Positions 1 through 44,800 of a DNA stretch of 64,000 nucleotides are shown here, piece after piece; positions within the stretch are counted from its first letter, which is position 1, and each line of letters starts with the position of its first letter. Location: contig OZ076409.1 of NCBI GenBank assembly GCA_964187785.1, forward strand, positions 66,652,001 through 66,716,000, read 5' to 3'. The stretch is from Amphiscolops sp. MND2022. Its lineage: Eukaryota. Made by a program: the position numbers and the translations under genes. Under the pieces are notes generated by a model. That model was given only the letters and a program-made list of their open reading frames with translations, did not search any database and was not told where the DNA came from.

Positions 1-1260
1 ACTGATAAAGGTACTGCATTTACTTCTACAATTATTGCGGAGGTTACGCAGATTTTGGGCATCACACTCAAATGTGCAACGACAAAACACCCGCAGACAA
101 TTGGGAAATTGGAGCGAACTCATGCCTCATTGAAAACAAATCTCAAAATGGCATGTGGGGAATATCGCCGACAGTGGCACAAATACTTGCCATTAGCAGT
201 ACTGAACCATAATACAAGCTATCACGCCAGCATCGGTTGTGAGCCAACGAGAGTATTTCATGGAAGAATTCCATTTAATATTTTGGATCACAAGCTTGGA
301 AATAATCCAAACGAGCAAATTAACCCCACAACCGAATTTGCTGAAGAGATCCAAAACCGGACAAAAATCCTGATTGACAAAACAAAGCAGAACATTATGC
401 AGTCGTATATCAAGTACAAAGAATATTACGACCGCAAAGCAAAAGCCGCTCCACTAAAGGAGAACGAATACTGTTTTGTCCTACAGCCGAAAGCGGACAA
501 TCAGGGATCAAAAATTCCATTCCGCGATTACCGTTGGGTTGGACCATTTGTAGTCCAAAAGGTTTTGCCAAATGAAAACTATATAGTAAGACGGATCAAT
601 ACGAACAAAACCCAAATTTTGCATCGCATTCGTCCTAAAAAGTTTGTCCCTAATCAGCCTCTTGAGGACAATTTCCAAGAACAACAGTTGCAGCCAGACG
701 AAGAAATTGTCATTCCGCAAGATGATTTATACGTCATAACGTGGGAAACCGACTTTGGCGAGCAGCTAGTTACACGAGGCAACGAGACTATTCCGACCAG
801 CATGCCGAATGGCGAACGACCGAATGCGGCAGAAACGAATACAAATGACGTAGCCGAGAATGAAGCGGATTACATAATCACGAGTGACAAAACAAACTAC
901 GCTGACCACGCGGCGCGGAACCGGAATGAAAGATTAAATCATGACGTCACAAAAAGGAATGAAGCTAGTGAAGCGACTAGCAACAGCAAATCTGATTGGC
1001 CGAATCCGGCCGTTTACCCCAAAGGACGAGAAAAAACTTTACCGAATACGGATAAAAGACCAAAAAATGATGAAATTCTCCCAGAAAGAAATTTGACGAA
1101 TGAAAATGACGCACAAAATTCTCCGAAAAGGGGGGATGATATTATCGTGCCCGAAATATCCGAAAACGATGCTAGAAATGAAAGTCTGAGCCCTAGAGGA
1201 GGGAAATATAATCTCAGGCCTAACCCTAACCCAACATACTCAGAAGACTTTAGATACTAG
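1..1260 (+). CDS. pol: Gypsy pol polyprotein C-terminus (integrase core, GPY/F-type region, disordered tail); 5'-partial
   Basis: Frame open from base 1: TDKGTAFTS...HPQTIGKLERTHASLK (D,D35E core), WVGPFVVQKV motif, terminal GKYNLRPNP motif; no stops. Confidence 0.95.
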   Translation, partial: TDKGTAFTSTIIAEVTQILGITLKCATTKHPQTIGKLERTHASLKTNLKMACGEYRRQWHKYLPLAVLNHNTSYHASIGCEPTRVFHGRIPFNILDHKLGNNPNEQINPTTEFAEEIQNRTKILIDKTKQNIMQSYIKYKEYYDRKAKAAPLKENEYCFVLQPKADNQGSKIPFRDYRWVGPFVVQKVLPNENYIVRRINTNKTQILHRIRPKKFVPNQPLEDNFQEQQLQPDEEIVIPQDDLYVITWETDFGEQLVTRGNETIPTSMPNGERPNAAETNTNDVAENEADYIITSDKTNYADHAARNRNERLNHDVTKRNEASEATSNSKSDWPNPAVYPKGREKTLPNTDKRPKNDEILPERNLTNENDAQNSPKRGDDIIVPEISENDARNESLSPRGGKYNLRPNPNPTYSEDFRY

Positions 1261-1503
1261 AAAAGATTGAATTTTGGCCAGGAGACAAGCCTTGGACCTA
1301 TTCCTTTTCTTCTATCATTTCATTTCTTTTATTTTTTCAGTCCCATGCAACATGGTATTTTTTGAATAAATAATGGGACAACCGAAGAACCCCTTTCAGG
1401 TAAATAAATACAGAGGCATTGCAACAAATGGAGATACAAAAGACAACAAAACAGAAAAATAACAAAGTTTACAGTTCATAAGTACATAAATACATATGTA
1501 CAA

Positions 1504-4500
1504 TTAGTCCTTAGAACAACCGGCAGGAGATTCTCTGACGACGGACGAGGCTCTCGAGCGGGATCTGCTCCTCTCCATGCGCTTCCGTTTGCGGTCACCG
1601 GGCGGGACTACTGCAGGCATATCTCCAACGCTGGAAGACGTTGTCTCATCGAGGCCCACTTCACCTAATCCAGAAAGGGCGGAACGATATGACGTAAGAA
1701 GGGACTTGTAAATTCTATTCCTACCAAACTCGTCAACGGAAGTCCAGGGGTCGTATGAGGCAGATGAGACAGTTTGACTGAAGGAGGCAGAAAGCAGAGA
1801 AAACTTAGCCAAACTAGAGTCACTGATACAGAAGGCAGTGGAGTCCGGAACCCCTGACAGATAACTCTGGACGGGTAAAACCACGTCTGTGAGTCTGTTC
1901 TGATGTTTTGTAGTGTTGGCAGTTCCAATACGTACTGTTGGGTATTGAGGACTTTCAGACGTAATGCATAAACAACTCAACTTGAATAGATATAACAGAC
2001 GACTATGCTCCTGCATAAAGTCAAGATTGACAAGGAAATCAATAAGATCCGGTGATCCCTGGCTAACATCGAATGAAGGAAGAGATGAAGCCTTGAGATG
2101 GTCCAATAGCTCCACGTACTCGTCCCGGCAGGTGGACTCATTTGCTAGACTGACCCAAGACCTGAGCTGAAAGGTCCGATATAATAAGTCGAAGTGACGT
2201 AGCGCTACTTCAGTGGGCCTTTTTACCAATTTATAAGGGTCAAAAGCAGCAAGGCCACGAACAAGATTAGAGCAGAGTCCGGCCTGGTGAAGAACACCCC
2301 CTATCAGGAACTGGATGAAATTTTGGCAGTCTCGGACGAAATCATTCTTGATGGTTTCTGCGGTCTTCTGCACTGCGGACCTGTCAGATTTCTTCCCAGA
2401 ATGGATGCCTTCTGATTTTTGCCTACTAGCTTTAGCAACTTTGTTCTTCATATTCAGTCGAGTGAGGAACTCATCAACTGGGAGGAATGCCCCCTCACTG
2501 GTTTGGAAGTTTAGAAGCAAGAACCACGAATTTTCGAGAGGGATGGTATCAGGAGCATAACACCGGAAGCACAGTCTGTAGACGTAACGGGCAACTTCCC
2601 CGCAAAGATAGAAGCAGGAATCACGTCCCTTATGCAAGTTGGAGGAGAAACTAGAGTCGTCTAAAACACAAGATACTTAGGTGTATTGGTCCAAAAGGAA
2701 AATCCTAGACTATCAAAACAGACTAACAATCACTAATGAGGTGATAGAAGAATTCCAACTTCACTGGAAAGAACTCATCACAGATGAGTGACCATTCAAA
2801 GCTCTGAACCTGCAACAAAAGGTTTACGGTGCGACTTCAAGACTTCCCCGTTTAATAGGAAAAGACGAAACCTGAGTTGAGACACTTACTCTAGTTCTGA
2901 CTCCTTGGCCCAGTTGTTTGGGAGAGTGCTCGGTAAGGAAAGAGACCACGGACTTCCACTCGTCCATGAGTTCTTGACACAAGAAAGGCAGTGTAGACAG
3001 GTCTAGATCGCTCTTGGAAATAGCCTAAAGAAAAGGCGGAGCCACTGCAATAACCCGTCTAGAAACCCTTAGGAGTGCGAGTTAGTGCTACAATATGATA
3101 CGAGCGCCCACTTACTTTGGCCAGTTCGGGACTGCGCTGTATCCAGTCCTCATCGGTCAACCCGCCCAGGGAGATGACCAAGCCGCGTAGCACTGAGAAG
3201 AAGTCTATGTGGCCGAAGACACTGTAGTTCTTCTTGTGCATCAACTTGGACAGATTGAGCTGGTTGAACCTGAAGCAGCTCTGAACAGCCCGCACTGAAG
3301 TTGGGAGCTCATCTATGGTCCGGATTAGGTCGGCCGGACACCCAGAACAGGCCACTACGTCTGCCTTTGTTGAAATTGCAGACAAGAGTCGCGCCATGGA
3401 ACCTAACTCTCCAGTGAGGTCGGTGGTGGGTAGCCTACTGCGACAAGCGATGACCTTGCAAAGATATTGACCCTTCCAGAACCTCACGGACATGAAGCGG
3501 TTGGGCCCCTGGTCTTCAAATTCCAAGGCAAAGCATTGCAGACTGGAAATTTGGTCAGCGACGTCACTCATGGCGCAGTTGAAGAAATGCTGGAATATTG
3601 CCTAAAATGGACACAGACCAAATATTAATAACCCAGAAAGGGAAAAGTCCTGTGAGAAGGGAAAGCAAATAACACTTACAGTCATCCTCTCTTCTCCCCA
3701 GTCGAAGTCGCAAAGGGAAGCTTGATGGTCAGTAATGGAACTGACTTTGGCCCACATGCTCCGGAGGATGGTGATGTCGCCATAGCTCTGGATGAAATCA
3801 GCTACCATGCTTAGCTGAGTTCTTGCTCGGGACTCGGGAGTAACCAAGGGAGTAGTCCTACCTCGAACGAAATCCTCGTAGAAAGGAAAACGTTCTCCAA
3901 TATCCACTAACTCCACATGGATAAACTTGGGGAGCTCCTTGGCCAGTTCTATCTTGCTCAAGATCTTCCCATTTCTGCCTCGGACTCGGTGTTGGGTCTT
4001 GAGCGTAATTGGATCGGTACTTTTCAGATACTCGTACCTCCACCTCTGGTCCCGTCTAAGATGTTTCTCAGTTCTGTGGTGCCTGAGTATCTCCATTGTC
4101 CCTTTACTTCTAATGGAGAAATTCTTCTTACAAAGGTGACACCAGACCATGAAGGGGTTGTGGATCGGATCCGCTGGCCCAGAGATAAACGACCGGGTCC
4201 AACCGATTTTTGCGAAGAACTCCTCTCGCATTGGGACTCCACGTTGAGGTAGTCTCTTGCCCTTCGGGGTCTTCTTACTCGGCAACTTGGTCGTAGACCG
4301 CAGTGACTGTTCTCTCACCTCAGATAAAGTGATATCCTGACTGCTTCGGTCAGTTTCTTGACTACCAGTCTGCATAACTCCTGGCTGCTCTGTAGGTGAA
4401 ACAATCGGGACGTCTGTGGTTTTGACTGAAGTTTCAAAAGAGGCCGAAATCAAGGCCATTTCGCCAGCACTGTCGCTTTCTCCGAATGAGGAAGAGTCGC

Positions 4501-5629
4501 CAAGTGTGCCCCGGTCTATGGTGTCATGTCCCTCTGAATCCGTAGTTGACAAGTCACCGGTCCCGGCGTCGCTGGAATCGCTATCAACTTGCCTGTAAGG
4601 AGTCTGTGCTCTGGTCCTTGATTTGAAATGGTCAGTGCGTGATGGGGCGATTGTAGGACTGCCCCGGACTGCATCCAGGATCATTCTTTCCATAGTAGAA
4701 TGTGACATCCGAAGCGTTTCGTCAGTTAAGATGCGTAACAGGTGATACACCTGAGACTCTGTGAAGGCAACTGCTGTTTGTCCTGGTGGGAACCGAAAGG
4801 CATGTGTCTCATCGAAATAAGTTTTCAGTATGGCTCGTGCCCTTCCAGAAAGTTCAGGAGGCTGGACGTCAAAGCCTTGAGAAGTGGATGCCTGTGGGTC
4901 GGTCTGGTGCTGCCTGAAGACGGTAGTGTCAGGGCATTCACTGGTCTCTCTTCCAGATTCAGACATTCCAGGAATATCTCCATAGAGTGAAGGACATTCG
5001 GTACTGCTCGCCTCCCCGGTTGTCTTCTCAGCCTCACTCAAGTCGGTCAAGAACCGGACTTTGTGTTCCTGGGTGGGCAGCATAGGAACTTCATATACAG
5101 AAGATTCGCCATACTCGTCATCCAAGGTCCTCCTAACTGGCGGAACAACGGTCTCCGCTTCAGTGGCAGGAAGGAGCTCAGGTAATTGGGATCCAGGGTT
5201 GTTTACAACTGTTAGACCTGCCTCTAATGTGTGCAAGCTAGCTTGGGATATTCCAGCAGTCTCCACCGGTATTGGGGTGCTAGACCGAACGGGGACTAAA
5301 CTCTGGGGAACATAGTCATTAGTGGAAGCCTCAGGATTGGCCGTCATCAAATTGGGATCACTGGTAGGTGATCGTTCGTGTACTTGGCTCTGCTCGACCT
5401 CCATTTCTTGCACTTTAGCTTCTGCATAGGCATTCACGTCTACCTCACTTTCGACGCCTTGAGGAGAAATCACAGATCTGGCGATGTACGCCACACTTGG
5501 AACTGTACCTTCATTGGAAATTGTTTGCGGCAGCCCAGAAGGGCTTGATGCGTTCTCAATCTCAGAAGCCTGATTATCTAAACGAAAAGAGATAAAGTTT
5601 AGCGGTATGCTTCCTTGAAAAGTGTCCAT
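1504..5629 (-). CDS. 5-exon antisense gene, 1269 aa: disordered N-terminus + BED-like Zn finger + hAT-transposase-like domain. Exons 5629-3680, 3601-3116, 3024-2890, 2809-2728, 2660-1504
   Basis: Four short GT-AG introns (78, 91, 80, 67 nt; donors GTAAGT x3, GTTAGT; acceptors TTTAG x3, TGCAG) join three ORF-track ORFs and two small exons in frame (phases 0,0,0,1; 3810 nt). Finger WCHLCKKNFSIRSKGTMEILRHHRTEKH at ~4147-4061. Confidence 0.85.
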
Positions 5630-6683
5630 TTTACCGCGTTGGAAATCTTCCGGAAGTGTCTTGAAAATTGAATGAAGCGTGCTTTCACGCGTCTAGTTGA
5701 TGGAAACAGGAAGCGTCATGTGAACAATGTTTAGCCTTGATCAAGCTAAGCTTGTTTGAAAGAAAGAGAAAATCAAACCAACCTGGATTGGAAGACATGT
5801 TGCCGTAATGTTACTCGTACAGTAAATGCTCTCGTCGGGCGAAAGAAGCTGAGGGAAATGGCCGTGGGTGGACTGAAGTTAGAGGCCCTAGTGCTGCAGA
5901 GAGGGGATCGACAGCAGAGTTAGAGACAAAGGGAAGATGAATATCAGCTAGGAGAATCCCAGTAAGGGAAACAATTGATATATAAATAGAATTCGAATGG
6001 AATTAAAGATGAATAAAGGAATTGGAAAGTTGGAGTTCGTGGCTGAAGAAATTACCAGACTAATATTATATAGTTATTTACATATTTATAATAGTGCATG
6101 GAGTCTGCCAGCGAAATGCACAGAACAACCTCACCTTTCTACAGATTATCCAATTAATGGCCGGTTAAGGCCATTCGCCTTATTTTATTCTGCCGGGTTG
6201 TCCCATTACCCTAATTATCTCCACGCGAAATTATCGCCATTTGGAATTATTCGGGATTATTATTTTCCGCCATTTTATTATTCAATTTTACAATTTATCA
6301 AAGCTCAATTCTGATTGGCTGAAGCCCATTTTGAGAAAACTTTGCGACGCATGCCGTTAATTGCTTACAAGCGACCCGTTAATTACCCACTTGAGACTGG
6401 TGTAGTTGATATTAAAAATTCAAGCGTCATTCACACCTCTCATAGTGATGACGCCGATGAGGGGTAAACACTGAAATATCAAAGGGTGCCGATTAGTTAT
6501 GGAATTCCATTCAGGAAAGTTTACGACGGATCAGGACGACTAACCGATGTTTTAACCGCCAAATTGGAAACTTCGGAAAAGCCTTACTGGGCTAAATTCT
6601 TGAATCGGATAAATTCATTCTACCTAAAACTTCACCTCAAATCAGTTGCCTTATCAGCTTCAAAAATCGCTAAAAAACTAATA

Positions 6684-7466
6684 ATGAGTAAGTTCAACCT
6701 CTCAAGAAAGTTGTTTGACTTTGAGGAATATGAATCCGATGATTCTAGCAAATCAGTAATCTACATATCCAGTAGTGAAGAAGAATCCTCAGACTGGGAG
6801 ACCGATTGTTCGACAGATACCGAGCAGCTAATTGCCCGGATTGAAAGGGAAGTTACTTCCAGTCCCGTGCTAATCGGGGGCAGGATAATGACCATGGATG
6901 AGCCTGAAGATGAAGCGAGAGCAGGGCCAAGTACGTCTCATGTAGAAGAAGGAACGACACCGAAACTGGGCATTAAATATTTTGACAGGGAAATGTGTTA
7001 TGCCCCGCCAAGGAGAATTGAAAAGAAACGCATAGAGCTCTGTAACACAATAATACCCGTCCTAGAATCGCCAATGTCACCTCCGGAACACGAGAGAGGG
7101 CCAAGCTTGGACACTCCCCTTGCACAGTCAATCACGAGTAACTTCCATGCGTCCTACCATGTGCAAAACACAGTGCCCTATCAAAATGTCAGTGCGGTGC
7201 CTTATACGGGATGCATGGTTTGCGGCCGTTCAGTGGACTCGATCAAGAACGAGAAGGTGGAATGGTACATGCAGCGATCCACACCCAGAGATGAGCCTGA
7301 GCACATCACCAGGCTTAGGAAGGAAGCGTACGAGAACGGACTTAACGCCGGCTGTTTTCTTTTTATTACTCCCGCAGTGTCGCAGGCTGCCGCCTGTGAC
7401 GGTACGAGTGTGACAACGTCGGCAACTGGACAAGAATTCGTACCCGGAACATTACCCATTTATTAA
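6684..7466 (+). CDS. Retroelement accessory ORF3 (~260 aa from first ATG): acidic/Ser-rich N-terminus, CxxC, C-terminus inside the LTR
   Basis: ORF track 6486-7466 (GTG start); first ATG at 6684. VIYISSSEEE and GCMVCG motifs; the SxAAACDG-like peptide recurs at the start of all four LTRs. Confidence 0.7.
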   Translation: MSKFNLSRKLFDFEEYESDDSSKSVIYISSSEEESSDWETDCSTDTEQLIARIEREVTSSPVLIGGRIMTMDEPEDEARAGPSTSHVEEGTTPKLGIKYFDREMCYAPPRRIEKKRIELCNTIIPVLESPMSPPEHERGPSLDTPLAQSITSNFHASYHVQNTVPYQNVSAVPYTGCMVCGRSVDSIKNEKVEWYMQRSTPRDEPEHITRLRKEAYENGLNAGCFLFITPAVSQAAACDGTSVTTSATGQEFVPGTLPIY

Positions 7467-9235
7467 TTGGGATAATTTACAAACTTAGAACTTTCATACT
7501 GTTTTGTTATTCAATACGTAATATGTTTGTTGATGTTGTTAGCTTCGATATATATGTACTTGCACATGTAAAATTAGTCTGTTAAAAGTCACATTTGAAG
7601 ATTCAAATAGTGTATTTGTAACTTCAAAAGATTGAAAGGCGCTTTGCTATTGTAAACGTAATACGTGACAATGTAGCTGTACAGTAGAAAGGAAACGAGT
7701 TCAAGTGAACGAAACTCCTATTCCGGAGACGTCACTTGAGCTCAACTCCTTAGCCAATCACGTTGCTCCTTTTCTATAAGTAATACCACTTTGATTATGT
7801 AATGGCCGAGTATGGCCAATTGACTCAATAATTGTGCCTTTTAGTCAAACGGCCGGTACCGGCCACTTCGTTGGAATAGCCTGTATGTGTGTTAATTGGG
7901 TGTACTAATCGTAAATTACTGTAAATGTACTCTTAATAATGAATGAAAGCCCCAATGCCGCGCAATGAGCTTAATAAACCTAGTACTCACTCAAAAGCCG
8001 AATAAGGCTTTTTCCCTCTTTTATTACAGTGCTGAAATAATAAACCGGATTTGTCCATCTTCGGCATTGTCAGAAAGTGTGTTATTTTAATAATGCTGTA
8101 TTATTTTAAGCAGAACTGATCATGTAATATTTAATCTAGTTCCTACTCACGTTGAATAATAGGCGCGTGGTAACGCGTGTCACAAGCACATTCCGAAGAG
8201 ATGCCTTTTGCATTCCTTCAATAGACATTGGTATTTGTTGACAGGATGATGTTGATGATGTTTATAAACACGACACTTGAAGGTGCTGCTTGTGTACCCT
8301 GTTAAATATCATTCTTTTGATGTTGAATTCCTAAGGACTACCCTGAAACTAGGAATTTTCCCAATCGGGACATCACCCTAAAATATCTGCTTTGAAGTGT
8401 TGAACACCCTACCCGATGCTGTAATAACACTTGTCACATGACCCGTTGAGGCCATAGTCATATGATGTTTTCTTGATCAAAGAATTTGTGGAATGTGAGT
8501 GTGATCTTTTTAGGAGTATATATAGCTATATTTCTGTAAAAAAGGACACAAATCCCATACCTTTACTTTGATAAAGATTGAATTAATACAACGACTTTTG
8601 TCAGTTTTCCGGTTTTGATAATTGAATTATTCAACCGGGTTCTGTCTTAATGCCTACCACTAGAAAGCAAAAGAAAGCGAGAAAGTCTAGGGGACTTGAG
8701 ATGTTATCAGATATTGAAAATCTGGATATCATGTTAGGCGAAAACCATTTTGGTGCACGAGAAAGAGAAGGTAGCCTGAATAGCAATTTACCTAGGAGGT
8801 CTAGGAGTTTTGCTAGTAATGAGTCTGACAATGGGGACGGGAACGGAAGTAGACCCAGGGGAAATATTGAACCTAGGATGAGTGCCGAGTGTGATCGCAA
8901 TTCTATCACAGGTGATTCTAGCGCTGAAATAAACAGATTGTCTAGCGAACTGAACTCTCGTATTTCACGGGAAATGGATGAGATGATGAATTCCGTAAGT
9001 GTCCAAATACAGAGAGCCATAAACGACGCGATAAGTACTCAAGTACTTCCTCAAATCCAAAATGTTATAATGGCCGAACCAGGACACAGGATCAGAAAGG
9101 GATGGGACGTTCCGGCCGAGAGACCGGAACCAAATTCCGAAGTTCAGCGAGACCTTAACGCAAAGAGTAGCTTAAGAAACGAACAATATGTGAATCAATT
9201 GAACGGTGATTACCCTGACCTAAATGTTCATGACA
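7378..9235 (+). repeat. 3' LTR (1858 bp) of the cargo-bearing Gypsy element
   Basis: Starts TGTCGCAGG like the solo LTRs, ends CATGACA; contains a TATA-like box (~8516) and the MPTTRKQKK ORF. Confidence 0.9.
8650..9235 (+). CDS. LTR-encoded N-terminal ~195 codons of a putative gag ORF (open through the LTR end)
   Basis: MPTTRKQKKARKSR...LSDIENLDIMLG...RISREMDEMMNSVSVQIQRAI...VLPQIQ has homologues in all four LTRs; the frame is open across the terminal CA. The gag identity is inferred from position only. Confidence 0.6.
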
Positions 9236-9299
9236 CTAATTTTTTTAAAGCTTCTATTACAACACTTTTGGAGTATTAATAATTAAACGCTTAGTTTTT

Positions 9300-14637: not shown

Positions 14638-16353
14638 TGTCGTGTGTACAATCTGCACTTTCCTCATGCAGACAAGTAAGGCTCACTCCTTGAACAACTC
14701 CTGATTTTCAGACTAGGATTATCTTCGGAGTTACGTTCCGGTTTCTCGGCCGAGACGTTCCATCCTTTCTGTGTCATTTGTCCAGAACCGGCCCTGAGGG
14801 AGTTCTGAATATGGGGCAAAACTTGATTGCTTTTTGCATCGTTAATAGCCCTTTGGATTTGAACACTGACACTGTTCATCACTTCATCCATATCTCTCGA
14901 GATCCTCAAATTAAGCACGCCTGATAACCTATTAAACTATGCACTAGAGTCTGTGCCAGCTGAGTTGTGGCCATAATTGGCACTGTTACTCTATCTATTT
15001 TCCCTAGAATTAGGGTAACTGTCCTCTTCGTTAGTTTCTGGTGCATTGATATTTGGACTACCAGGTCTCCTAATGGAGTCACCAAACTCACTTCCTTCCC
15101 TTTCCAGATGATTGCCTCCCAACATAATATCTAGATTTTCTATGTCTGATAACATTTCTACTCTTCTAGAATTTCCAGCTTTCTTCTGTTTTCTAGTAGT
15201 AGGCATCAAGAAATCCTGATTGTAATATTTTATTAGGAAATCAGGTTTGGATATTTTAAGCGTGTGAATAGTCGTAGAACCAAACAAATTGTGTCCCTCC
15301 CAGGAGAAGTAGGGGTATATAAATATATCCCTGAGAGATTGACTCTAACAATTTTACATGAACTGTATAATTAAAATAACATTCCAATCGCGTTTTGTTG
15401 AACAGAGTTTTACATAGTTCTAGTAGGTAAATTCCATAAAAGGCATGTGATCAGCATCTTGATACTGCACTTGGGTACATAGATCGACCCACTCAAGATT
15501 TTGACCTATCGGGGACTGAACATATTTGAAACAGTTAATAGCATAGGTTGTAAACAATCACGAACATCAAAGTTTTAGCACCTAAATGTCGGAAATATGC
15601 AACAACGAATTCTTGTACACGGAATTAAGTTAGCATCCGGTTAAATACATTGATATACATGATCTCATAAAGGCACTGAGTTGACCTAAATCAGCCATTG
15701 TACATAAACTAGGCAATATTGTCCTGCTTTGATCGGTTCAGATATTGGTTTTTATTAATGTCAGCAACGATTAAAACATTTAACAACTCTTCAATTAACA
15801 CCGTTTATTCACAGTATTCGACATTTCAAGACAGTTTTAAGTACTTCTCAGGGAAATACACAGCACTACTAGTTGAATAAAGCAGCCAATCTGATAAAAG
15901 TGAAACACGCGGAATCCGGCCATTTAACTAGCGTCCCTGTGAGTGGTGGCCCAATTAAGTCAATTAGCCGCATCCAGCGAAATAATGTACTGCTCTGAAA
16001 TGATATTATTAATACTGCACTGTGTTTGGTCAGCTATAAGCCAACAAGTTACGACGCCGAGAAAGGACATTTTAGCACTCGAACACGTTTCCTTTGCATC
16101 GCACATTATTCAATTTACTTCTTGCATTTCAACTTTACATTGCTCCAAACTACCAAATCAGCTCTTTGAACAACAGTTAACAGACTAATACAAAACAAGT
16201 CTACGAGAATATTTAAACAAACTAAGTACTAGTTTTATGAGAGAGATTGTTTTTAGTTTCAATATCAGAAAGTATGGTGTGTTCCAGGTGCAGTGTTTTG
16301 TCCATTTGCGGTTGTCGTGATCGCTGTGCCATCACAGGCGGCATCCTGCGACA
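14638..16353 (-). mobile_element. Solo LTR (1716 bp) of the cargo-bearing Gypsy family
   Basis: TG...CA ends, 5-bp TSD CTGTA (14633-14637 / 16354-16358), frameshifted MPTTRKQKK ORF (ATG 15206). Confidence 0.92.
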
Positions 16354-16399
16354 CTGTACCCTCGAAGTGACCCAAGTAAAGAATATAAAATCTTGATCT

Positions 16400-18014: not shown

Positions 18015-19205
18015 TCAATCCGAAATATCATCAAAAGATGGTAATGTGCTGGTCCTGGTTGCTTCGTAGTTGGAATCTCTGTTATTAGGAGCATAGGAAA
18101 TTTGGTTATTGTATTCATTTTGATTACGCTGATTATAGAGAACATTTCGCGCCGTAGCTGGGCGTTTTTTCCAAAGACATGGGCATATTCTCTTTAACTT
18201 GGGAACAACGATTCCTCGAAACTCGAACCATGTCCATGCATAGAGAAACGGATTCAGGGCGCAATTAACCAGAGGTGTAAGTTGGACCACTTGATCGAAC
18301 CAATGCTGCATAAGTTTTTCTTCTAGTTTGATATTAGCATTGCCGATTACGTAAACATACCAGAAGATTTGGTTCGGGACCCAAGCGAGAATGTAAAAGG
18401 TCACTATCAAGGTCAACCGGATGCAAAGTGACCTCATAAACGATTTCGCACATTGATATAGAAACTCAGACTGAGGGTCAAAGTCTCTGCGACCTTCATG
18501 GTGTCGTTTCGCCATTGCAGTTTCTCGGAACAATTTGAAGTAGCAGACAAAAACAATTATCAAGGGGATTATCATCACCAATGAAATCTGCAAGACCAAA
18601 CCTATGTATTTAAGAAATTTGAAATCAGTGCAACCGAGAACACACTGGACTTCGCCATCTCGTTTCCGAATGTAGAAATTAAAGGGGCTGTCGTTAAGAA
18701 TAACCAAACCGAGAACCCAGCTGAAAACAAGCAGACAACGGATGCGACATTTAGTCCCAAACAGAAAGGTGTACCATTTGGGTTTCAAGTCACCCTTAGA
18801 TGCACCCAAAAGTTCCATGGTAAGAAAGACAACCAACCACGAGGATGCGCATGTTAGGGTCAAGACGAGGAAGTTTGAAAGGTAGATTCTGCATATTATT
18901 TGACCGCCTATGCCGTCTGGGATTCCTGCTTTTGCTGGGTAACATATTTGGGCAATCATGCCTAGATTTTGAAGCATGTCCGTGAAAGCTAAGTTTTTCA
19001 ACACTCTGAGGTGATTGGTGAGGTTCGATGTTGAAAAAAGAACAAAATAAATGAAAGCGTTCATGATGATACCAAAAACACCGCCGGCCAGCATGCACCA
19101 AAAAAATCCATCGTGGGGATCGTATTTTCCATAAATAACCAAAGCATCATCGTCATCATCAGTTGTCTGTCTTTCAAAGTGGAATAAACCTGATTGAAGT
19201 ATCAT
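18015..19205 (-). CDS. Intronless class A (rhodopsin-like) orphan GPCR, 396 aa
   Basis: Seven hydrophobic segments; TM2 NLAFTD, TM3 Cys and ECL2 Cys, TM6 FYILAWVP, TM7 NCALNPFLY; the DRY position reads ELL. Confidence 0.92.
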   Translation of the reverse strand: MILQSGLFHFERQTTDDDDDALVIYGKYDPHDGFFWCMLAGGVFGIIMNAFIYFVLFSTSNLTNHLRVLKNLAFTDMLQNLGMIAQICYPAKAGIPDGIGGQIICRIYLSNFLVLTLTCASSWLVVFLTMELLGASKGDLKPKWYTFLFGTKCRIRCLLVFSWVLGLVILNDSPFNFYIRKRDGEVQCVLGCTDFKFLKYIGLVLQISLVMIIPLIIVFVCYFKLFRETAMAKRHHEGRRDFDPQSEFLYQCAKSFMRSLCIRLTLIVTFYILAWVPNQIFWYVYVIGNANIKLEEKLMQHWFDQVVQLTPLVNCALNPFLYAWTWFEFRGIVVPKLKRICPCLWKKRPATARNVLYNQRNQNEYNNQISYAPNNRDSNYEATRTSTLPSFDDISD

Positions 19206-20876
19206 TGTTGAATCGTAAAAAGCAAAACAAGGACTCTACCAGTCGAAGGAGATGATAGCCGCTGAGAAATATAAATGTACAATCCGATATTTGATTAAAA
19301 TCGGAATTTCAGAAAATATAGAATTGTGAAAGAATCATTCAACTGGCAAAACAGGTGCCGAAGTTCTTGAACAAAACATTTTTGACGTTCGTATGAATCG
19401 AATGAGCAAATAGAGAGGGTTGAACATTCTTGAATGACCCGAATGAGCAATTAGATGTGGACTGAAGCTATCTTAGTTCAACTCTTTTGCTTGGTTTGTT
19501 AGTGAATTTATCAAACGACAAGATTCGAACGAAACCATCCCAGCGTCGATTCTCATTTGGTGACGCCATAGCCACTGAATGTATTCAAGAAACTCGTTTG
19601 TCAGCAATTTCATTGATTCGAAAGTTGGTTTTACTTAATAGCATAAAATATGCATGACGTGTAACGGAAGAATGAAGATATTAACGACACAAGGCTTCAT
19701 TCTCAAAAGGAGAATCATTCAAATTGTTCAGCCGTATAATGCTTCCATTGTTATTTGTCATTCGTCGTACGCGTCTTTGCACTTAATATTCAAAATGTAA
19801 CCAGATTTTTCCACAGAGGAACCCTCCAAAAACTCGATTGACTCTCTGTTCAAACCCGGAAATATTGTGGAAGACCATATGAAAATGCGAGAGGCGATGA
19901 GGCATTTTTGGCATTTTTGAAACATTAAGGATATTGATTTTAACTAAACTAATTCTCACTTTTGAGTGTGGAATATATATTTTTGCAAAAGTGGACTGAA
20001 TTATTTTCATTGGGCAACCTTTTGGGCAGGCAGAAAGAGCCACAAGTAAAATCATCAAATCAAAGAAATTCGCTCACAGCGCAAAAATTTTTGAATCTCA
20101 AGTTATAGAGATTCAGTAACAAAAGGTTCTAATATAACCAAAACGTGAGAAACCTAAACAATATGCAACCTACATTTAAATGTTTCTTAAAGGGCTTTGT
20201 TGCTTGACTCCATAAAATTTCATGAAGGTTTTTGGAAAAAAACTAATGAAATCGAAAGTAAGTATGAATTCTTTAATGTTAAAAACATCTAGTTTCAAGT
20301 AGCTCTATAAATGAGTTTTCAATCCTCAGAAGTCACTCAAAACAACGTCATATTTAATGTATTTTAGTTAAATTGGTTTTCTTGGACCTCACAAGTTTGT
20401 GAGAACACCCAGGAGAAGTAGAAATTGTTTTTTAAGTGCTTGGATGACGTATCCGGACTTGGAGTGTGCCGGTTACTCGTCCCGGAGCTCTTAAATGAAC
20501 TCATGCAAAACAACGGGAAAAATAACATTAGATTTAAGAAAACTATTGAATTGACAACCTTTATTAACAGGCTGAAAGCTGATTTTCTACCTGGTATTCA
20601 GTTGTTAAACATATGAAAGTTTGAGTTCTTTGCTTAGTGAATAAAGTCGAAAAATTACAAAGAGTTTAAGTTCCAAATTATGTATCTGATACTAAAAAGT
20701 TTCAATTCTTAGTAAGTCTTGATCTGATCAACTTCGAAGCTTCCGTGGATGAAATACTTGCAACCGAACAGGTTGTCACTGTGTATCGATCGTATGTTTC
20801 TCACTTCGCTTCTCGAACACTATCTCGATCATGTTGATCACGTCATACAGCTATCATGACGTCACTGTTGATTACG

Positions 20877-23800: not shown

Positions 23801-26800
23801 ACAAATTGGAAGCAATTAGCAAAATCCACATACCAAAAACTGAAAAAGAATTAATATCATTCCTGGGAGCTATCCAATACCTATCAAAATACATGCAAAA
23901 CTTGTCAGCAAACACCGATATTCTGAGAAAATTGCTGAAGAAACAAAACGATTGGATATGGACGGACAAACACACCGAAGCATTAAACAAATTAAAAGAA
24001 GGTATTACAAAAATACCATGCTTAGCACACTAATCCCCTCAGAGTGAAAACATAATTACAACAAACGCCAGCACGGAAGGATTGGGAGCAACTCTTTGGC
24101 AGAAACAAAAAACTGGCGAATTAAAACTGATCTGATTCGCAAGTCGATTTTTATCCAATACGGAGAAGAAGTACAAAATAAACGAACTGGAACTGCTAGC
24201 AGTACTCTGGGGACTGGAACACTTCAGACTACATATTTACAGAAAACCAATCGAGATATTAACAGATCACCAAGCGCTGGAACCACTCATTAAAAGAAAC
24301 ATGTCAAAAAAACCTACAGCGCAAAACTAACAATATGGTTAGATCGTTTGGCTCATTTCGATTTAAATATCAAACACATCACCGGAAAACATTTGAAGCT
24401 AACAGACTATTTGAGCAGAAATACAATATCAAAGCCAGAGCCTATTGAAAGATACGACGAAGAGTGCGTAATTAATTGCATACTACCATTACTTGAGTTC
24501 TTCAGTAATTACGGCAACATCACCGGTAAGTTGAATTCAGAAGCTAGAACGGACCAAATTAGGAAGTGTGAACAGAAATTCAACCAATCAGCATCAAGCA
24601 AAATGAACGAACCGAAGTATGTAGCAAACAAAACAAACAAGCGCAGTTCGTTGCTACCTCAACTTAATACAGTCAATCAAAGCACAATTAACATCTTGCA
24701 AACCAACCACGAAACAACAATGGTCATTCTCATATGCTGCATTGAACAAAATGAAACAGATGATCCATCGGAAGGAACAACTAACAAACCGTTGGAAAGA
24801 AGTGGTAGAACCCGGAGAATAAAGAACGTCTAATGGAGTCTGGAAAAAGTACAATCCGCAAAACATCACGGAGCGGAAATAAAACGAATCGAAATGATGT
24901 TAAATCAAAGAAGAAATAGACTGCTCTGGGACTGCATGGAAGAACAAGATGAAGAACCGGAGGAAGACACCACACGAAGACAAGAGCTAAACAGGGTGAT
25001 AGAAAAAATTAGAAGCATGCCGCAAAAACAAGAAGGAGAATAACCAGGAACAAACGACGGCACGTAAGAGACAATTGAGACAGAATCAACAAGTTCATAT
25101 GAATCATTTGGCGTCCCAGCAGTCAACTTCAGGAAACACCTCGGGACAACCAGTGTGGGGTATATTCAGATGGCACAGGCCAGTCACATCCAAAATGAAG
25201 ATAGATGGGACCTGGAGTAGAGTATCAGGCAAGTGGAGCAACAATTAACTTCAGACCTGAAAACCATTGCCACAGAAACAAATAATGGCGAAAAGTTACT
25301 GAAAACACTGGAATGCTTGGAGAAAAGAACGTTGGAACAAATACCTGACGAATACGAGCCATACCAGAAACAGTTGTCAACGAGATTCGTCGTGGTATTT
25401 TTTGATGACCAAATTTTAATCCCGAAGGATCTGAGAACAACTATAATTATGTTCCTACACAAAGGAAACGCGGCCATCAACAAGATGACGGCAGTGGCGA
25501 AACCATGCTGGTGGCCACGGATAACACGAGACACACAGCAAAATGCGATGAATGCGTTTCGTGTAAAATGGCAGGTAAGAACATTAAACCACAATTGCCG
25601 AAGACCGAAATTAACTACTAACCACCGGTAGATAAAATATACTGAGAAATCTAATTGGATTTCATTGGACCAATAAGAGTTAAGCACAATAGATTTTACA
25701 TATTACTTTCAATAAACAGGTACAGCAGATGACCGGGTGCATGCTATTGTGAAGCACCGACAGAACGAACAGCAAAAAAAATTTTGAAACAAGATGTTAC
25801 ACTGAATAGCGTACCACAAACCATTACAACAGATAAAGGCACTGCCTTCACTGGAAAAGAATTGAGAACTCTGTAAATATCTAAACATTAATTTAATCTA
25901 TGGAACACCATATCTACACACACCAACCGGACTGATGGAATGGGGTATTAGAACACTAAAGGGATACCTCCGAACGAACCTAGAGGAAGGACACAACATG
26001 AACGACGCATTAGGTCGTTCACTAAATGTAATGAGAACAACGGTCTATTCTAGCCTAACGGAACCACCGTTCGAACGTCATTACGGCAGAAAACGACGAA
26101 CGGAATTCCATAATTGTTTAAATGTGTCACCCAATAAACATTACAATGTTTCAGCGAGACCAGAGACGCTACAAGTCTATTCCTTTACCAATAGAAACGG
26201 AGCATACGAATAACTCGTAATGAAAGCCTCGAGAAAACTAAAGGAAGACGTAAGTAATAAAATCCATGCTTATTCCTCCAAAAAAACGCAACAGAGATAA
26301 ATTTGAAAGTGTGTACGAATACAAACCACAAACCGAGGTAGCGGGAACGAAACACACAATAGTAACGGATACAAACAAAATAATACATAGAAAACGAATA
26401 AGCAAACCTTTGAACTCAAAATTTCAGAACCCTCTTATCACGACGAGGGGGAAACCCGAGGGGGAAAAATTGGAGATTTGTACAGCCGGAACAATTAGAA
26501 GACAATGACATAACAGCAGAACACTCGGAGAGAAGCAGTACACCGGTGCTAGAAGAAAGTGTGCTGGATAATACACCGGAAATAGAGAACACAACAATCA
26601 GTACAGTGTAGGGCAGAAGCCGAAAAAAACTAAATAGGGACAGAAGCACCACTACAACACCAAAACCCGGACCGGAAATCAACGCAAGACCAACCACGGA
26701 GGACAACCCGAACGTGATCACTGTGGTGGATCAAAACGGTATCACCGATTTAATAAAAACTGAAAACATAGAACAAACTGATAACCAGAACGAACAAAAT

Positions 26801-29800
26801 ATCCGAAAATCAACTAGACTAAGATCAGCAAATCCAACAAATAGATACGGTAACCCAATCACATTCTGCCTATTAGAGGTAACACTGTTAATAATTGGAG
26901 CAACCACGATCGCCAGTAGAAAACCCATGATGCAACGACCGGAAGAATTGGAGAATAAAAACCCAGAAAAGGAAGAAGAAGAGGACTATACGGTAGAAAC
27001 CGTATATAAAATATTGCTAAATAATCGAATCATTCGGTCCAACTATTATCGTTTGAAATTTGAGTTTTTTTTTGTAATAACTCTTTATAGTTATAATTAT
27101 ACATGTAGTTACTTCCTAAAGAAGGGGAATGTGGCATGACGTCACTTCATGCAATACTTTACATGTATACTATAAACAGTAGCTGTGACAATTTAGTACC
27201 TGTCAACAACGCTACGACTCAACATTGTGCTGACCAATTCATTAACTTTTCAATACTCCTATTGAACAGAATAGATTCTACAGCACTACCCTTGTTTTCC
27301 TATCGTGTTCCTAAGATACAACCATTGACTTGTTGTTCATTAAAAGACTGAACAGATCATGCATGCCATGACTAATTCTGGCGATTTTACATATTACTTC
27401 CAATAAATTGGTACAACAGATGGCCGAATGCGTGCTATTGTGAAGCACCGACAGGAAGAACAGCAAAAAAATTGGAACAAACTGTTACACTGAATGGCGT
27501 ACCACAAACCATTAGAACAGATAAAGGCACTGCCTTTACTGGAAACGAATTGATAACTCTTTAAATCTCTAAACATTAATTGATTCTATGGAACACCACA
27601 TCTACACACACCAAACGGACTGGTGGAAAGGGGTATTAGAACACTAAAAGTATACCTCCGAACGAACCTAGAGGAATGACACAACATAAACGACGCATTA
27701 GGCCGTTCACTAAAATGTTATGACAACAACGGTCTATTCTAGGATAAAAGAACCACCGTTCGAACGTCATTACGGCAGAAAACGCCAAACGGAATCCCAT
27801 ATATATTTAAATGTGTCACCCAATAAACATTACAATGTTTCAGCGAGACCAGAGACGCTACAAGTCTATTCCTTTACCAATTGAAACGGAGCATACGAAC
27901 AACTCGTAATGAAAGCCCCGAGAAAACTAAAAAAGACTTAAGTAATAAATTTCCATACTTATTCCTTGAAAATAAACGCAACATAGATAACTTTGAAAGT
28001 GTGTACGAAAACAAACCACAAACCGCGGTAGCGGGAACGAAACACTCTATAGTAACGGATACAAACAAAATAATAAACAGAAAACGAACAAGCAAACCTT
28101 TGAACTCAATATTTCAGTTCCCCTTATCACGACGAAGGGGAAACCCGAGGGGAAAATGGGAGATTTGCACACCGGAACAATTAGAAGACAATGGTACAAC
28201 AGCAGAACACTCGGAGAGATGCAGTACACCGGTGCTAGAAGAAAGTGTGCTGGATAATACACCGGAAATAGAGAACACAACAATCAGTCCAGTGTACGGC
28301 AGAAGCCGAAGAAAACTAACCAGGGACAGAAGCACCACTACAACACCAACACCCGGACCGAAAATCATCACAAGACGAACCACGGAAGACAACCGAACGT
28401 GATCACTGTGGTGGATCAAAACGTTAACACCGATTTAGTAAAAACTCAAAACATAGAACAAACCGATAACCAGAACAAACAAAATATCGTTACAGGTAAC
28501 TTCGTTAAAAAATGGAGCAACCACGATCTCCAGTAGAAAGTAGAAAACCCATGATGCAACGACCGGAAGAATTGGAGAATGAAAACCCAGAAAAGGAAGA
28601 AGAAGAGGACTATACGGTAGAAACCGTAGATAAATTATTGCTAAATATTCGAATCATTCGGTCCTACTATTATCGTTTGAAATTTGAGTTTATTATTGTG
28701 ATACTTCTTTATAGTTATGAATCTACATGTAGTTACTTCCTGAAGAACGGGGATTGTGGCATGACGTCACTTCATGCAATACTTTACATGTATACTATAA
28801 ACAGTAGCTGTGACAATTTAGTACCTGTCAACAACGCTACGACTCAACATTGTGCTGACCTCTTCATTAACCTTTGAATACTCTTATTGAACAGAATAGA
28901 TTCTACAGCAATACCCTTGTTTTCTTATCGTATTCCTAAGATACAACCAAAGACTTGTTGGTCATTAAAAGACTGAACAGATTATGCATGCCTTGACTAG
29001 TTCTGGCGTCTGAAGATAGCTGACAATATGAGGTTTTACAAAAGTTAAATGCTAATCAAAATATTGGTATTGAAAACTTTCTAATCTGCCATTTGAAAAA
29101 TATTTTTTAGCTGTTGGCTCTTTTTCGATCATTCCGAAATTAACTTTTTTTTCTTGAAATTTTCTTCATTCATCGCTTCATTTAAGAGTTCCAATACTTA
29201 CTAATTAACTAGACTAAATTTGTAAACGTATTGAAAAAATAGAGTTTGAAATTCTAGCTTGAAGGAAATTTTAAGTCTATCCATCTATCCATTTGCTTGA
29301 GCCTATATAGACGACGATATCGAAAACTAGTCATTTTCGTTCTCGTTTTCATCCACCATGAAAAAAATGTCAAGTCAAATTCTGTTACCTTTGAATACCC
29401 ATCCCAGTGGTTACCATGTACTCTGAGTCGCTCTCCCTTTCGCAGAGGAATTTCCCCTTTGGATGCATTGAACAGGGTGTGGTCACTGGTGGCATGCCAG
29501 AATCGGGCACCTTGGCCAGCGTAATAGTAGAGGTCATCCAGAGACTGGTAACGCCATCCTGCGTCTTCCGTTCTTCTGTACACCTAAATTGTAATGATGG
29601 CTGATGAGGAAAAGAGAACAACAAAAAATTATTCAGTTTTTAAGCTGGACGATAAAAATGCATTCCTTGCAAGAATCTTGCAAGATCCTTGCAAATCACA
29701 CACGTTTTTCCTTGCAAGGAAATTAATTGGAAGAATCTTGCAAGAACCTTTCAAATAATCTATTTTCAAACCAAAAACCCAATCCCAGTCAAAAAAGATC

Positions 29801-41800: not shown

Positions 41801-44800
41801 GGAACAACATTTGTCTTTTTGGCATGAAATTGGAATATTGGTAAAATGAGAAAAACACGGCTCAGCTAATAATTTTTTTTCTAAAATAGAAATTTGGGTG
41901 AAAACTTATTCAGTTTCCCTGTTTCATTAAATATCAATTTTTCATGAAATGTCAAATTGCTTTAATTCTTTCACATGACAAGTGTACTTTTGGGAGCAAA
42001 TCTTTTTATTGTATTGTTGTGAAGATAGTAAAGATTTATGGACATATGGGCCAAAAATATTTGAAAGTAATTTAATCACCCCTGTGAAAGGTAGATAACG
42101 ATTTTCTATTTCGAATTTGGCAAGAAAATGCCTGGGATGTATTCACCTGTATCAGTAAAAATTACAGCTCCCTGCCGGATATTATGCAATATGCGACAGA
42201 AGTTGACACCCAACCGTGTGTGGAGAGGAGAAACGATAAGACACCGACAGGGGGATATTTCATTCCTCTGACGTCATTAGAAGAAGATGACCCTGGTTGA
42301 AGAAAAATTGCAAGCCTTGCAAGTATACATCAAAGAGCTTTTCTTAAGATGCATTTTTCAAAAGATGTTGCCAGTAAATATCTTTCACGGAAGAATCTTG
42401 AAAAAATGAATACAGATCCAACGAAAATTGGGCTTATTTCAATCATTGCGAGATCATTCAAATGAATGCGCCTTTCCTTTTGGGAGGCGGAAATTTCGTC
42501 GCAAGAAATTTCGTCGTCGGAAATTTCGTCGTAGGAAATTTCGTCGTATTAGCAAATACAGAAATTTCGTCGTCAGAAATTTCGTCGTATTGATAAAATT
42601 CAACAGCGTTCGGGAAAATTGAAATTAAATTCAATTATTTAATTATTAAAACGAGATTTTAACAACTTTCATTTTGACACCAAAACTGAGTCAAAAAGTT
42701 AATTGCATCCAATCAATTCATCAAGAACTACGTATTTTACCGGTGTATTCACACCATACTAGCCAAAAGTTTGCTTGGACCATGTCATCTATTCCCCCAA
42801 ACGGCGGCGGGGGAAATAAGACAAAAGGTTCAAATAACATTATGTCGACATTGTTTGCGTTGAAATGTTGGTCCAATAAAATAATATTTCGGTCCAATTC
42901 ATATAATATTTTCTTATTAGAGAAATATTTTTATTCAAGAACAAAATGTGCTTTAGTGCAGGGAAAATTCGGAGCTTTACTATACAATTTAGGTTTGTTC
43001 TGGAGGTGAATTTTTGCTTTTTTTTCAAACTTTTTCTGGTAAAATCATCTCTAAAAGTAGTCAATAATAGCAATAATTGTACAATTACCGATAATTGTCA
43101 AGACGCGGTGAATTTTAAGACATCAATAATATTAGACAATTCCTAATAGCTTAGATAAAATGCGACGTTTTATAGAACGTAATTTCCGACGACGAAATTT
43201 CTGACGACGAAATTTCTGACGACGAAATTTCTGACGACGAAATTTCTGACGACGAAATTTCCGATGACGAAATTTCCGACGTCGAAATTTCTGGCGACGA
43301 AGTTTCTGACGACGAAATTTCTGGTAATCCTCCTTTTCTATTTGCTCACATGTTTTTTGCAAAATTCCTTCCAGTCTTTCAATTATTATGCAATACTTTG
43401 CTCCATCTTGGAAGATTCTTACAAACCACTTGCAAGGAAAGTGTTCTTCTCGACCAGGGGCGATTCAAATTTACAGCATGCCTTTTGGAGACCTGACGGA
43501 CGAGACCGATAGAGCTGATGAATGCAGAGGTATCCAGACTAAAGTTGTTGTCCAGTTGGCATGTAAAACTCATCAATTGCGTAATTGTATGCCAGTTAAA
43601 ATGGGGCGTGAACTCAGTTCCGCGCTGAGAATTCATTCAATACCATCGGTGGTCATCGCAATTTTGTTCTGAAAGGCTCTGATGGAGTTTTAAAAATGAC
43701 ACGTTGTGACCCTTAAATAATCATTTGTGACTTCTTTTTCTATTATTTTCAAATCAATTTCATCAGAAAAGTTCACCAGGTTTGAGATATTTTTCCAAAT
43801 CACATCTTTTTAATTACAGAAATGCTCAAAAAGTTATTTGATTAGAAGTATCAATGCCAGCGTCTGAACTAAGAACCATGAATATTTACGTCTTGGGTTA
43901 ACTCCACCTATAATGCATGGTAACCAAACCGTTTGCTATAATCTACCCAGTGATCAAAGGCGAGAAACACCAAGATCTTGCCATTATCTTGAAATATTTT
44001 GATCTTTCCGGATCCAACTCCACATGCGATTCCTTGCAATTCCATGCACGGAGCCTTACGATAAATTCAAGCCGTTTCCATGCATAGAATTGAATGAAAC
44101 CATATGATTCCAAAGCATGGAATTGTATTGATCATATGGTCCCATGTATGGAATCGCATGGAAGCCCCATGAATTCAGATCGATTCAGATCCATGGTTGT
44201 CAAGGTTTTCTATGTCTTCGAATGCAGGGTAGCTATGGTTGTCAATGGAATTCTCCAACATCTCAAACAAGATATGCTGGTTCTAATCTTTATTTTTAAA
44301 AAAGTTAATTCTCACATATGTTCAAACATATTAAAAAATGTATCTAATTTTTTCTCTCTCGTCAAATGCAATTGATGATAACGGCTCAGATGAATCACCA
44401 GTAGTGTACTTCTTGCCAAATTGTTATTTCAGAGAATTTGGAGGTCCTTGGGTTTCGCTGGATAAAGGATACATGCTCATTTGGAATAAAATTACTCCAT
44501 CGCCTGGATCTAAACCCACTTTTGAGGGTTGCTGGGATGCTCTGGCTAATGAAATCGTCAGAACTTGTTGCGAGTACTACCCTCCACTGTTTCAAAAGAA
44601 CTACACCATTCACGCTTTCTTAGCAACTCATTCGTCGCTTCTTTTTAACATTGTAGCAAGTTTATGTGCTCTAAGGTTCATTGCTGAAGATGAAATTCCA
44701 GAAAATTTCCGAAAAATTCCCGAAATGGTCGTCAAACCCGAAACGGATGTTAATACAGAGAACTTGAGATGGCTGATTGACTGGCTATTGAATAACTCCA

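Follow-up and report, generated by a model that had tools for sequence, protein, structure and literature searches.

The window, a stretch of 64,000 nucleotides, opens inside a full-length LTR element of 16,164 bp that runs from window position -6928 to 9235 (contig positions 66645072-66661235). The two LTRs of this element, each 1858 bp long and 99.3% identical to one another, have TG...CA ends and are accompanied by a 5-bp target-site duplication, and the Pfam domains of pol follow the Ty3/gypsy order (protease, RVT_1, RT_RNaseH, Integrase_H2C2, rve), with a gag that carries a zinc knuckle. Judged by its repeats and domains, the element is a young Ty3/gypsy LTR retrotransposon, laid out as LTR, gag, pol, a gene on the antisense strand, a spacer of about 1 kb, a sense-strand frame (ORF3) and LTR. 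Its parts within the window, other than the antisense gene, are the following.

1-1260, plus strand: 3' end of pol (C-terminal part of the integrase), in an ORF of 1738 codons that begins upstream of the window
1340-1379, plus strand: short, conserved hairpin arms in the spacer between pol and the antisense gene, with AATAAA (1365) in the loop
1340-1410, plus strand: AATAAA words behind the pol stop, present in all 20 near-clade copies (20 of 20)
6031-6375, no strand assigned: blocks of conserved non-coding sequence in the interval from the antisense gene to ORF3, a candidate divergent promoter; blocks at 6031 and 6100, a word at 6080-6090 (minus strand) that we take to be TATA-like and one at 6312 that we take to be a CCAAT word
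6684-7466, plus strand: ORF3, 260 codons from its ATG, terminating within the 3' LTR
7378-9235, plus strand: 3' LTR, 1858 bp, with the initial 586 nt of gag (ATG 8650)
9236-9240, plus strand: target-site duplication, 5 bp

The pattern of the hairpin arms recurs in 32 of 40 copies of the element, with paired arm changes in some, as judged by a pattern search without folding. With AATAAA placed after pol, a gag-pol RNA could end ahead of the antisense gene. ORF3, a second accessory ORF that accompanies the antisense gene, has an acidic N-terminal part and a CxxC motif and is carried by relatives at 27-34% identity; we rejected it as an env gene because it has no Pfam match and no transmembrane stretch (maximum 19-residue hydropathy 1.34). 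Two copies (L116-L117 and L039-L040) have a terminal repeat enlarged to 2.8-3.4 kb that includes ORF3. In every clade examined, gag begins 586 nt before the end of the LTR (window 8650-9235; L002 4344 onward), so that the primer-binding site would lie inside the gag frame; a conserved stretch starting with TGG follows the 5' LTR. In the window clade no polypurine tract precedes the 3' LTR (7350-7377), its place being taken by a pyrimidine run ending in CAG, and distant clades have a short G-rich or purine run of 5-7 nt there. The gag of the window copy contains one in-frame stop (L002 5343-5345), and its pol is uninterrupted. Farther along, the window holds a related LTR remnant with a gag start (14991-16356, minus strand), an intronless-looking frame of a rhodopsin-family GPCR, the chief indication in the sequence of an animal host (18015-19235, minus strand; 7tm_1, E 2.5e-13), tandem duplications of about 1.6-1.7 kb within an A-rich stretch (25692-29108), and satellite arrays of 22-nt and 15-nt units (37203 onward and 43147-43338).

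Structure of the antisense gene

The gene itself is read from the minus strand and consists of the parts listed here, where copies are those of the 40 loci described below and proteins are library proteins.

5783-5798, minus strand: probable first coding exon, 16 nt, its ATG exactly 16 nt upstream of the donor
5578-5782, minus strand: probable fifth intron, 205 nt, phase 1, containing ATG 5629 and two 10-bp palindromes (5647-5656 and 5736-5745)
5629-3680, minus strand: exon 1, long, 1950 nt, starting at ATG 5629 or at acceptor 5577
4061-4141, minus strand: zinc finger C-x2-C-x16-H-x5-H (Cys497, Cys500, His517, His523)
3602-3679, minus strand: intron 1, 78 nt, phase 0, seen in 40 of 40 copies
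3601-3116, minus strand: exon 2, 486 nt
3025-3115, minus strand: intron 2, 91 nt, phase 0, exactly missing from 1 of 40 copies and from protein P0268
3024-2890, minus strand: exon 3, small, 135 nt, containing the invariant Trp835
2810-2889, minus strand: intron 3, 80 nt, phase 0, exactly missing from protein P0067
2809-2728, minus strand: exon 4, small, 82 nt, the best-conserved exon (dN/dS 0.00-0.02 where measurable)
2661-2727, minus strand: intron 4, 67 nt, phase 1, exactly missing from 3 of 40 copies and from proteins P0011 and P0090
2660-1504, minus strand: exon 5, the last, 1157 nt, stop codon 1506-1504

Exons 1 to 5 join into 3810 nt, enough for 1269 codons and the terminal stop, and in the phases given none of them contains a further stop. 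The donors read GTAAGT in three of the four introns and GTTAGT in the remaining one, the acceptors are all pyrimidine-rich and end in (T/C)AG, and retention of any of the four would bring in an in-frame stop. The word GT[AGT]AGT occurs five times on the minus strand of 1504-5629, and four of these occurrences are the proposed donors. The exon sums, the phases and the GT-AG borders thus agree with the original prediction, which had assembled three ORF fragments and two small exons through four canonical introns into a frame of 1269 amino acids.

As to the extent of the gene, that prediction holds for the four introns and probably not for the 5' end of the first exon, where it overlooked a probable fifth intron and a 16-nt exon. 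A TTAG acceptor, preceded by a pyrimidine run, lies 51 nt inside the exon that starts at 5629 in 30 of 30 copies, and sequence conservation drops directly past it. The donor at 5782 is GT in 29 of these 30 copies, and an ATG stands exactly 16 nt before it in all of them; joining 5783 to 5577 (phase 1) preserves the frame and gives 1257 codons. The same pattern of 16-nt exon and fifth intron is repeated in five of six additional copies. Another clade has no ATG at the 16-nt spacing: the three copies read there have an ATG directly after the acceptor, and one of them has an additional ATG 7 nt before the donor, again in phase 1. The 5' end of the 1269-codon model is thus probably incomplete, with the 16-nt exon and the 205-nt intron lying upstream. 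Since all 30 copies retain ATG 5629 too, 29 of them with an open frame, both starts may be usable and the antisense protein may have two N-termini. One of the two palindromes inside the probable fifth intron recurs in all 30 copies with no more than one mismatch. Farther upstream, the blocks at 6031-6375 are a candidate for a promoter common to the antisense gene and ORF3, in keeping with the original prediction's remark that the gene would need a promoter of its own.

Conservation and intron loss across the family

With the last exon as query, 7170 first-look candidates came up in the host genome, and the 136 scored among them match at 63-100%; distant library proteins used as queries led to further clades with 116, 109 and 77 matches, which are matches and not copy numbers. 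From these we picked 40 loci of about 20 kb each so as to cover the range of the family; their identity in the last exon goes as low as 27%. Every one of the 40 has the gene in antisense orientation, placed after pol and before ORF3 or the 3' LTR. Both LTRs are visible in 37, and the other three loci are rearranged, truncated or interrupted by an assembly gap. As the loci were found through the antisense gene, this count says nothing on the share of elements of the lineage that are without it. Two homologs, P0067 and P0090, have a best match of only about 45% and about 30% among the best host-genome candidates scored, so the gene family is probably present in another genome too.

The exons and introns of these copies behave as those of a gene should. 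Across the 40 copies, 306 of 312 splice sites are canonical GT or AG at identical codon positions, and each of the six non-canonical sites is limited to a single copy. Intron length varies between 63 and 250 nt, mostly by differences not divisible by three, and in the five most diverged copies of one compared set the introns are 34-63% identical to the window whereas the exons are 59-80% identical. Of 50 exon-copy pairs, 27 allow dS to be measured, and in these, both small exons included, dN/dS lies at 0.00-0.12; the remaining 23 are saturated. Third codon positions are most variable in the proposed frame alone, and shifted frames accumulate stops. The comparison with diverged relatives that had been suggested as a check on the gene was thus carried out, for exons against introns and for splice sites and frame in paralogous elements, and each part came out in favour of it. 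By these measures the gene is under purifying selection, with a coding conservation comparable to that of the other proteins of the element, and the antisense gene is real and well supported as a gene.

The strongest support short of RNA comes from copies in which single introns are absent with exact borders. One copy is without introns 2 and 4 and two more are without intron 4, while library proteins read through junction 2 (P0268), junction 3 (P0067) and junction 4 (P0011 and P0090). Such exact absences confirm three of the four junctions from DNA and protein sequences, without RNA. The intron-less cases are scattered on the exon trees, which were rooted at the midpoint with no formal test, and at least some of them fall within groups of intron-bearing copies, at support values of 0.97-0.99; no single root therefore renders all of the absences ancestral. 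Exact loss of this kind fits reverse transcription of spliced RNA back into the element.

The gene also appears to travel separately from its surroundings. One copy (L023-L024) differs from the window by a pS of only 0.02 in the integrase and of 0.69-0.72, near saturation, in the antisense exons, and reverse transcriptases that are 96% identical accompany antisense cores that are 70% identical. The copies are mosaics, which points to recombination between subfamilies, and since integrase and reverse transcriptase are near-identical while the antisense exons are strongly diverged, the cassette moves between subfamilies.

Resemblance of the protein to hAT transposases

The N-terminus encoded by the long exon is acidic, rich in Ser, Thr and Pro, disordered and weakly conserved; it is followed by a conserved island at about residues 255-335 and by a basic patch at about 445-465, ahead of the zinc finger. 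Each of the four zinc-finger residues is identical in at least 27 of 30 copies. By its spacing we take the finger to be BED-like; Pfam gives no zf-BED match, its only result for the finger being a zinc-ribbon at E 0.17. Exon 2 (3116-3601) is predicted to form three strands, a helix, a strand and a helix, which is the RNase H-like order, and the last exon is predicted to be all-helical, resembling the insertion domain and C-terminal part of hAT transposases, with the catalytic Glu motif absent from it.

When two separately folded parts of the protein were compared with 48,161 chains, the Hermes transposase (8edg) was the sole chain found in both top-50 lists, and no other chain aligned over a greater length in either list; its two matches follow one another colinearly, and the predicted resemblance is weak. 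An ESM search reached hAT-type clusters at 0.87, and the 10 best family-bearing matches all belong to the hAT clan. In hhalign the best local match places exon 2 on the first catalytic strand of ZMYM1-type hATs, and the profile comparison with hATs is not significant. Active hAT transposases have a catalytic DDE triad together with CxxH and RW motifs. Of these, the weak alignment with the antisense protein retains Glu677 (at the first catalytic position, in exon 2) and Trp835 alone, and it has no DxG Asp, CxxH His, Arg before the Trp, or ERxFS; exon 2 also has no second Asp. Pfam gives no match for any exon or for 59 aligned relatives, neither to the C-terminal dimerisation domain PF05699 nor to the Transposase_28 domain of TRP28 (PF04195).

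Taken together, these weak, predicted likenesses make a hAT ancestry of the antisense protein probable. One could also suppose that the gene is real and not derived from a transposase, being a captured host gene or a zinc-finger orphan whose likeness to Hermes is due to chance. We consider this improbable, given that the two parts match the same hAT chain in the correct order, that the hAT clan is common to all 10 of the best family-bearing ESM matches, that the order of finger, RNase H-like strands and helical region agrees with hATs, and that a search for a homologous host gene gave no match among proteins of 673-2000 residues.

It is hardly credible that the gene belongs to an ordinary nested insertion, that is, to an intact or recently dead hAT transposon lying inside the retrotransposon. 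The host genome is rich in hAT elements and a perfect 13-bp inverted repeat does surround the gene in the window copy (1371-1383 and 6196-6208); however, no more than four of the 40 copies have this repeat, and these four are near-identical; its left arm lies in the local hairpin seen in 32 of 40 copies, and neither terminal inverted repeats of the hAT kind nor an adjoining 8-bp target duplication were found around the gene. The unchanged position of the gene in all 40 relatives, even at 27% identity, the purifying selection and the missing catalytic motifs also speak against a recent insertion.

Proposed role and relation to known systems

Fixed position, selection and lost catalysis fit a domesticated gene, and the reading that we favour, somewhat above even chances, is a catalytically dead hAT-type transposase that was domesticated by a Ty3/gypsy lineage as a nuclear DNA-binding regulator. 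A hAT DNA transposase would have entered an ancestral element together with its introns; its terminal repeats and catalytic residues would since have disappeared, and its zinc finger and scaffold would have remained. A promoter inside the element, reading against gag-pol, would give a minus-strand RNA that is spliced by the host, and the product of about 1260 residues would act in the nucleus, where the finger would bind DNA and the acidic, disordered N-terminus would recruit host factors, regulating the element through activation or relief from silencing. Granting the rest, we regard the promoter, the expression and the regulatory role as about evenly balanced. Introns that lie antisense to the genomic RNA can survive retrotransposition. 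Because the gene is antisense to gag-pol, we infer that its introns stand reversed on the genomic RNA, would not be read there by the spliceosome and would pass through retrotransposition; the orientation found in this Ty3/gypsy element bears out the earlier proposal that its introns are tolerated for this reason. More tentatively, and with the chances somewhat against it, the former transposase could now be a sequence-specific regulator or anti-silencing factor that acts on the palindromes or the LTR of the element, encoded by a cassette that is swapped in the manner of alleles and whose spliced RNA is occasionally copied back.

DNA binding and oligomerisation are established for the Hermes transposase. 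A protein built on such a DNA-binding, oligomerising scaffold might also act after transcription, as a tether or guide of the integrase complex, in nuclear import (which has been proposed for plant antisense ORFs; PMC7264820, in its accessible text) or as a component of the particle. If the protein took part in the copying of the element, this would account for selection in every transposing lineage, and the evidence for selection is the same under both readings. We nevertheless think this reading rather unlikely, because the cassette is swapped among copies with nearly the same integrase (pS 0.02 against 0.69-0.72), a mild argument against tight pairing with the integrase, and because the 5-bp target sites of the copies, inspected by eye, share no obvious motif. 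Very improbable, in our judgement, is that the protein has targets beyond its own element, through broad anti-silencing in the host or interference with competing transposons, cassette diversity then reflecting conflict. Diversity of the cassette is indeed deep on a common pol background, and anti-silencing proteins encoded by transposable elements exist, as the VANC proteins of plant MuDR elements illustrate (PMC13547354, accessible part); yet no sign of positive selection was seen in the exons tested (averages only), and the conserved palindromes beside the gene are a nearer target.

The domesticated regulator that we favour can be compared with several known systems. With hAT transposases (Hermes; ZMYM1/FAM200/GTF2IRD2-type) and the host genes domesticated from them it would share a finger ahead of predicted RNase H-like strands and a helical region, and it has the weak, colinear structural match to Hermes. 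It differs from them in having no catalytic or signature motifs, no terminal repeats, a long acidic N-terminus, and another transposon, not the host, as its carrier. The brtn gene of Boty/BcGypsy1 was reportedly described by Zhao et al. 2011. It is, like the present gene, an antisense additional gene in a Ty3/gypsy element outside plants, namely in Botrytis (PMC8365987, as far as its text is accessible). Ours encodes a large protein with a CCHH finger and hAT-like parts in young animal elements.

Plant Ty3/gypsy elements are known to carry antisense ORFs in the stretch from pol to the 3' LTR, namely gene23 of maize Grande, rice RIRE2 and TRP28 of Retand (accessible portions of PMC7264820 and PMC11963269). 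According to these, gene23 of Grande is transcribed from an internal promoter of its own and yields a nuclear product, the products of such ORFs are nuclear or predicted DNA binders, and their origin and function are unknown, with no similarity to other transposable elements. Like them, the present gene has the same location and orientation, occurs in copy after copy of its family (all 40 loci, themselves found through the gene) and is conserved like the element proteins; unlike them, it has an animal host, four or five spliceosomal introns, a much longer protein, no TRP28 domain and a resemblance to DNA transposases. The word "intron" is absent from the accessible text of PMC11963269, and that of PMC7264820 merely asks to look for spliced transcripts.

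The HBZ transcript is spliced. HBZ and APH-2, the antisense genes of HTLV, and the VANC proteins are element-encoded nuclear regulators and would be functional analogues of the role proposed here (PMC11963269 and PMC13547354, in part). No sequence relation to either is expected; HBZ uses the promoter of the 3' LTR whereas the candidate promoter here is internal, and VANC is encoded in DNA transposons. The accessible text of PMC9911081, on an LTR-rich animal genome, holds no earlier description of such elements, and the literature covered, outside of which lie most subscription journals and the repeat databases, yielded no LTR element of an animal whose antisense gene is transposase-like and has several introns. 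The antisense layout is thus already known from plant and fungal elements, and the multi-intron, transposase-like version is new for an animal as far as this literature goes.

The finding extends the layout to an animal and offers a candidate origin, in a DNA transposase, for a class of accessory genes whose origin and function are without explanation in the accessible text of PMC7264820 and PMC11963269. Repeat masking and prokaryote-style gene calling fragment such a gene into anonymous pieces, as the protein matches show. The zinc finger near conserved palindromes is a testable domain, with young, intact-looking copies and hundreds of scored relatives at hand. Repeated exact intron losses in a setting rich in reverse transcriptase bear on the cDNA model of intron loss. 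If a regulator whose spliced RNA is copied back is the true reading, the family would provide, in many natural copies, a means of counting and dating exact intron losses, and the antisense orientation would be the only one in which introns ride through reverse transcription.
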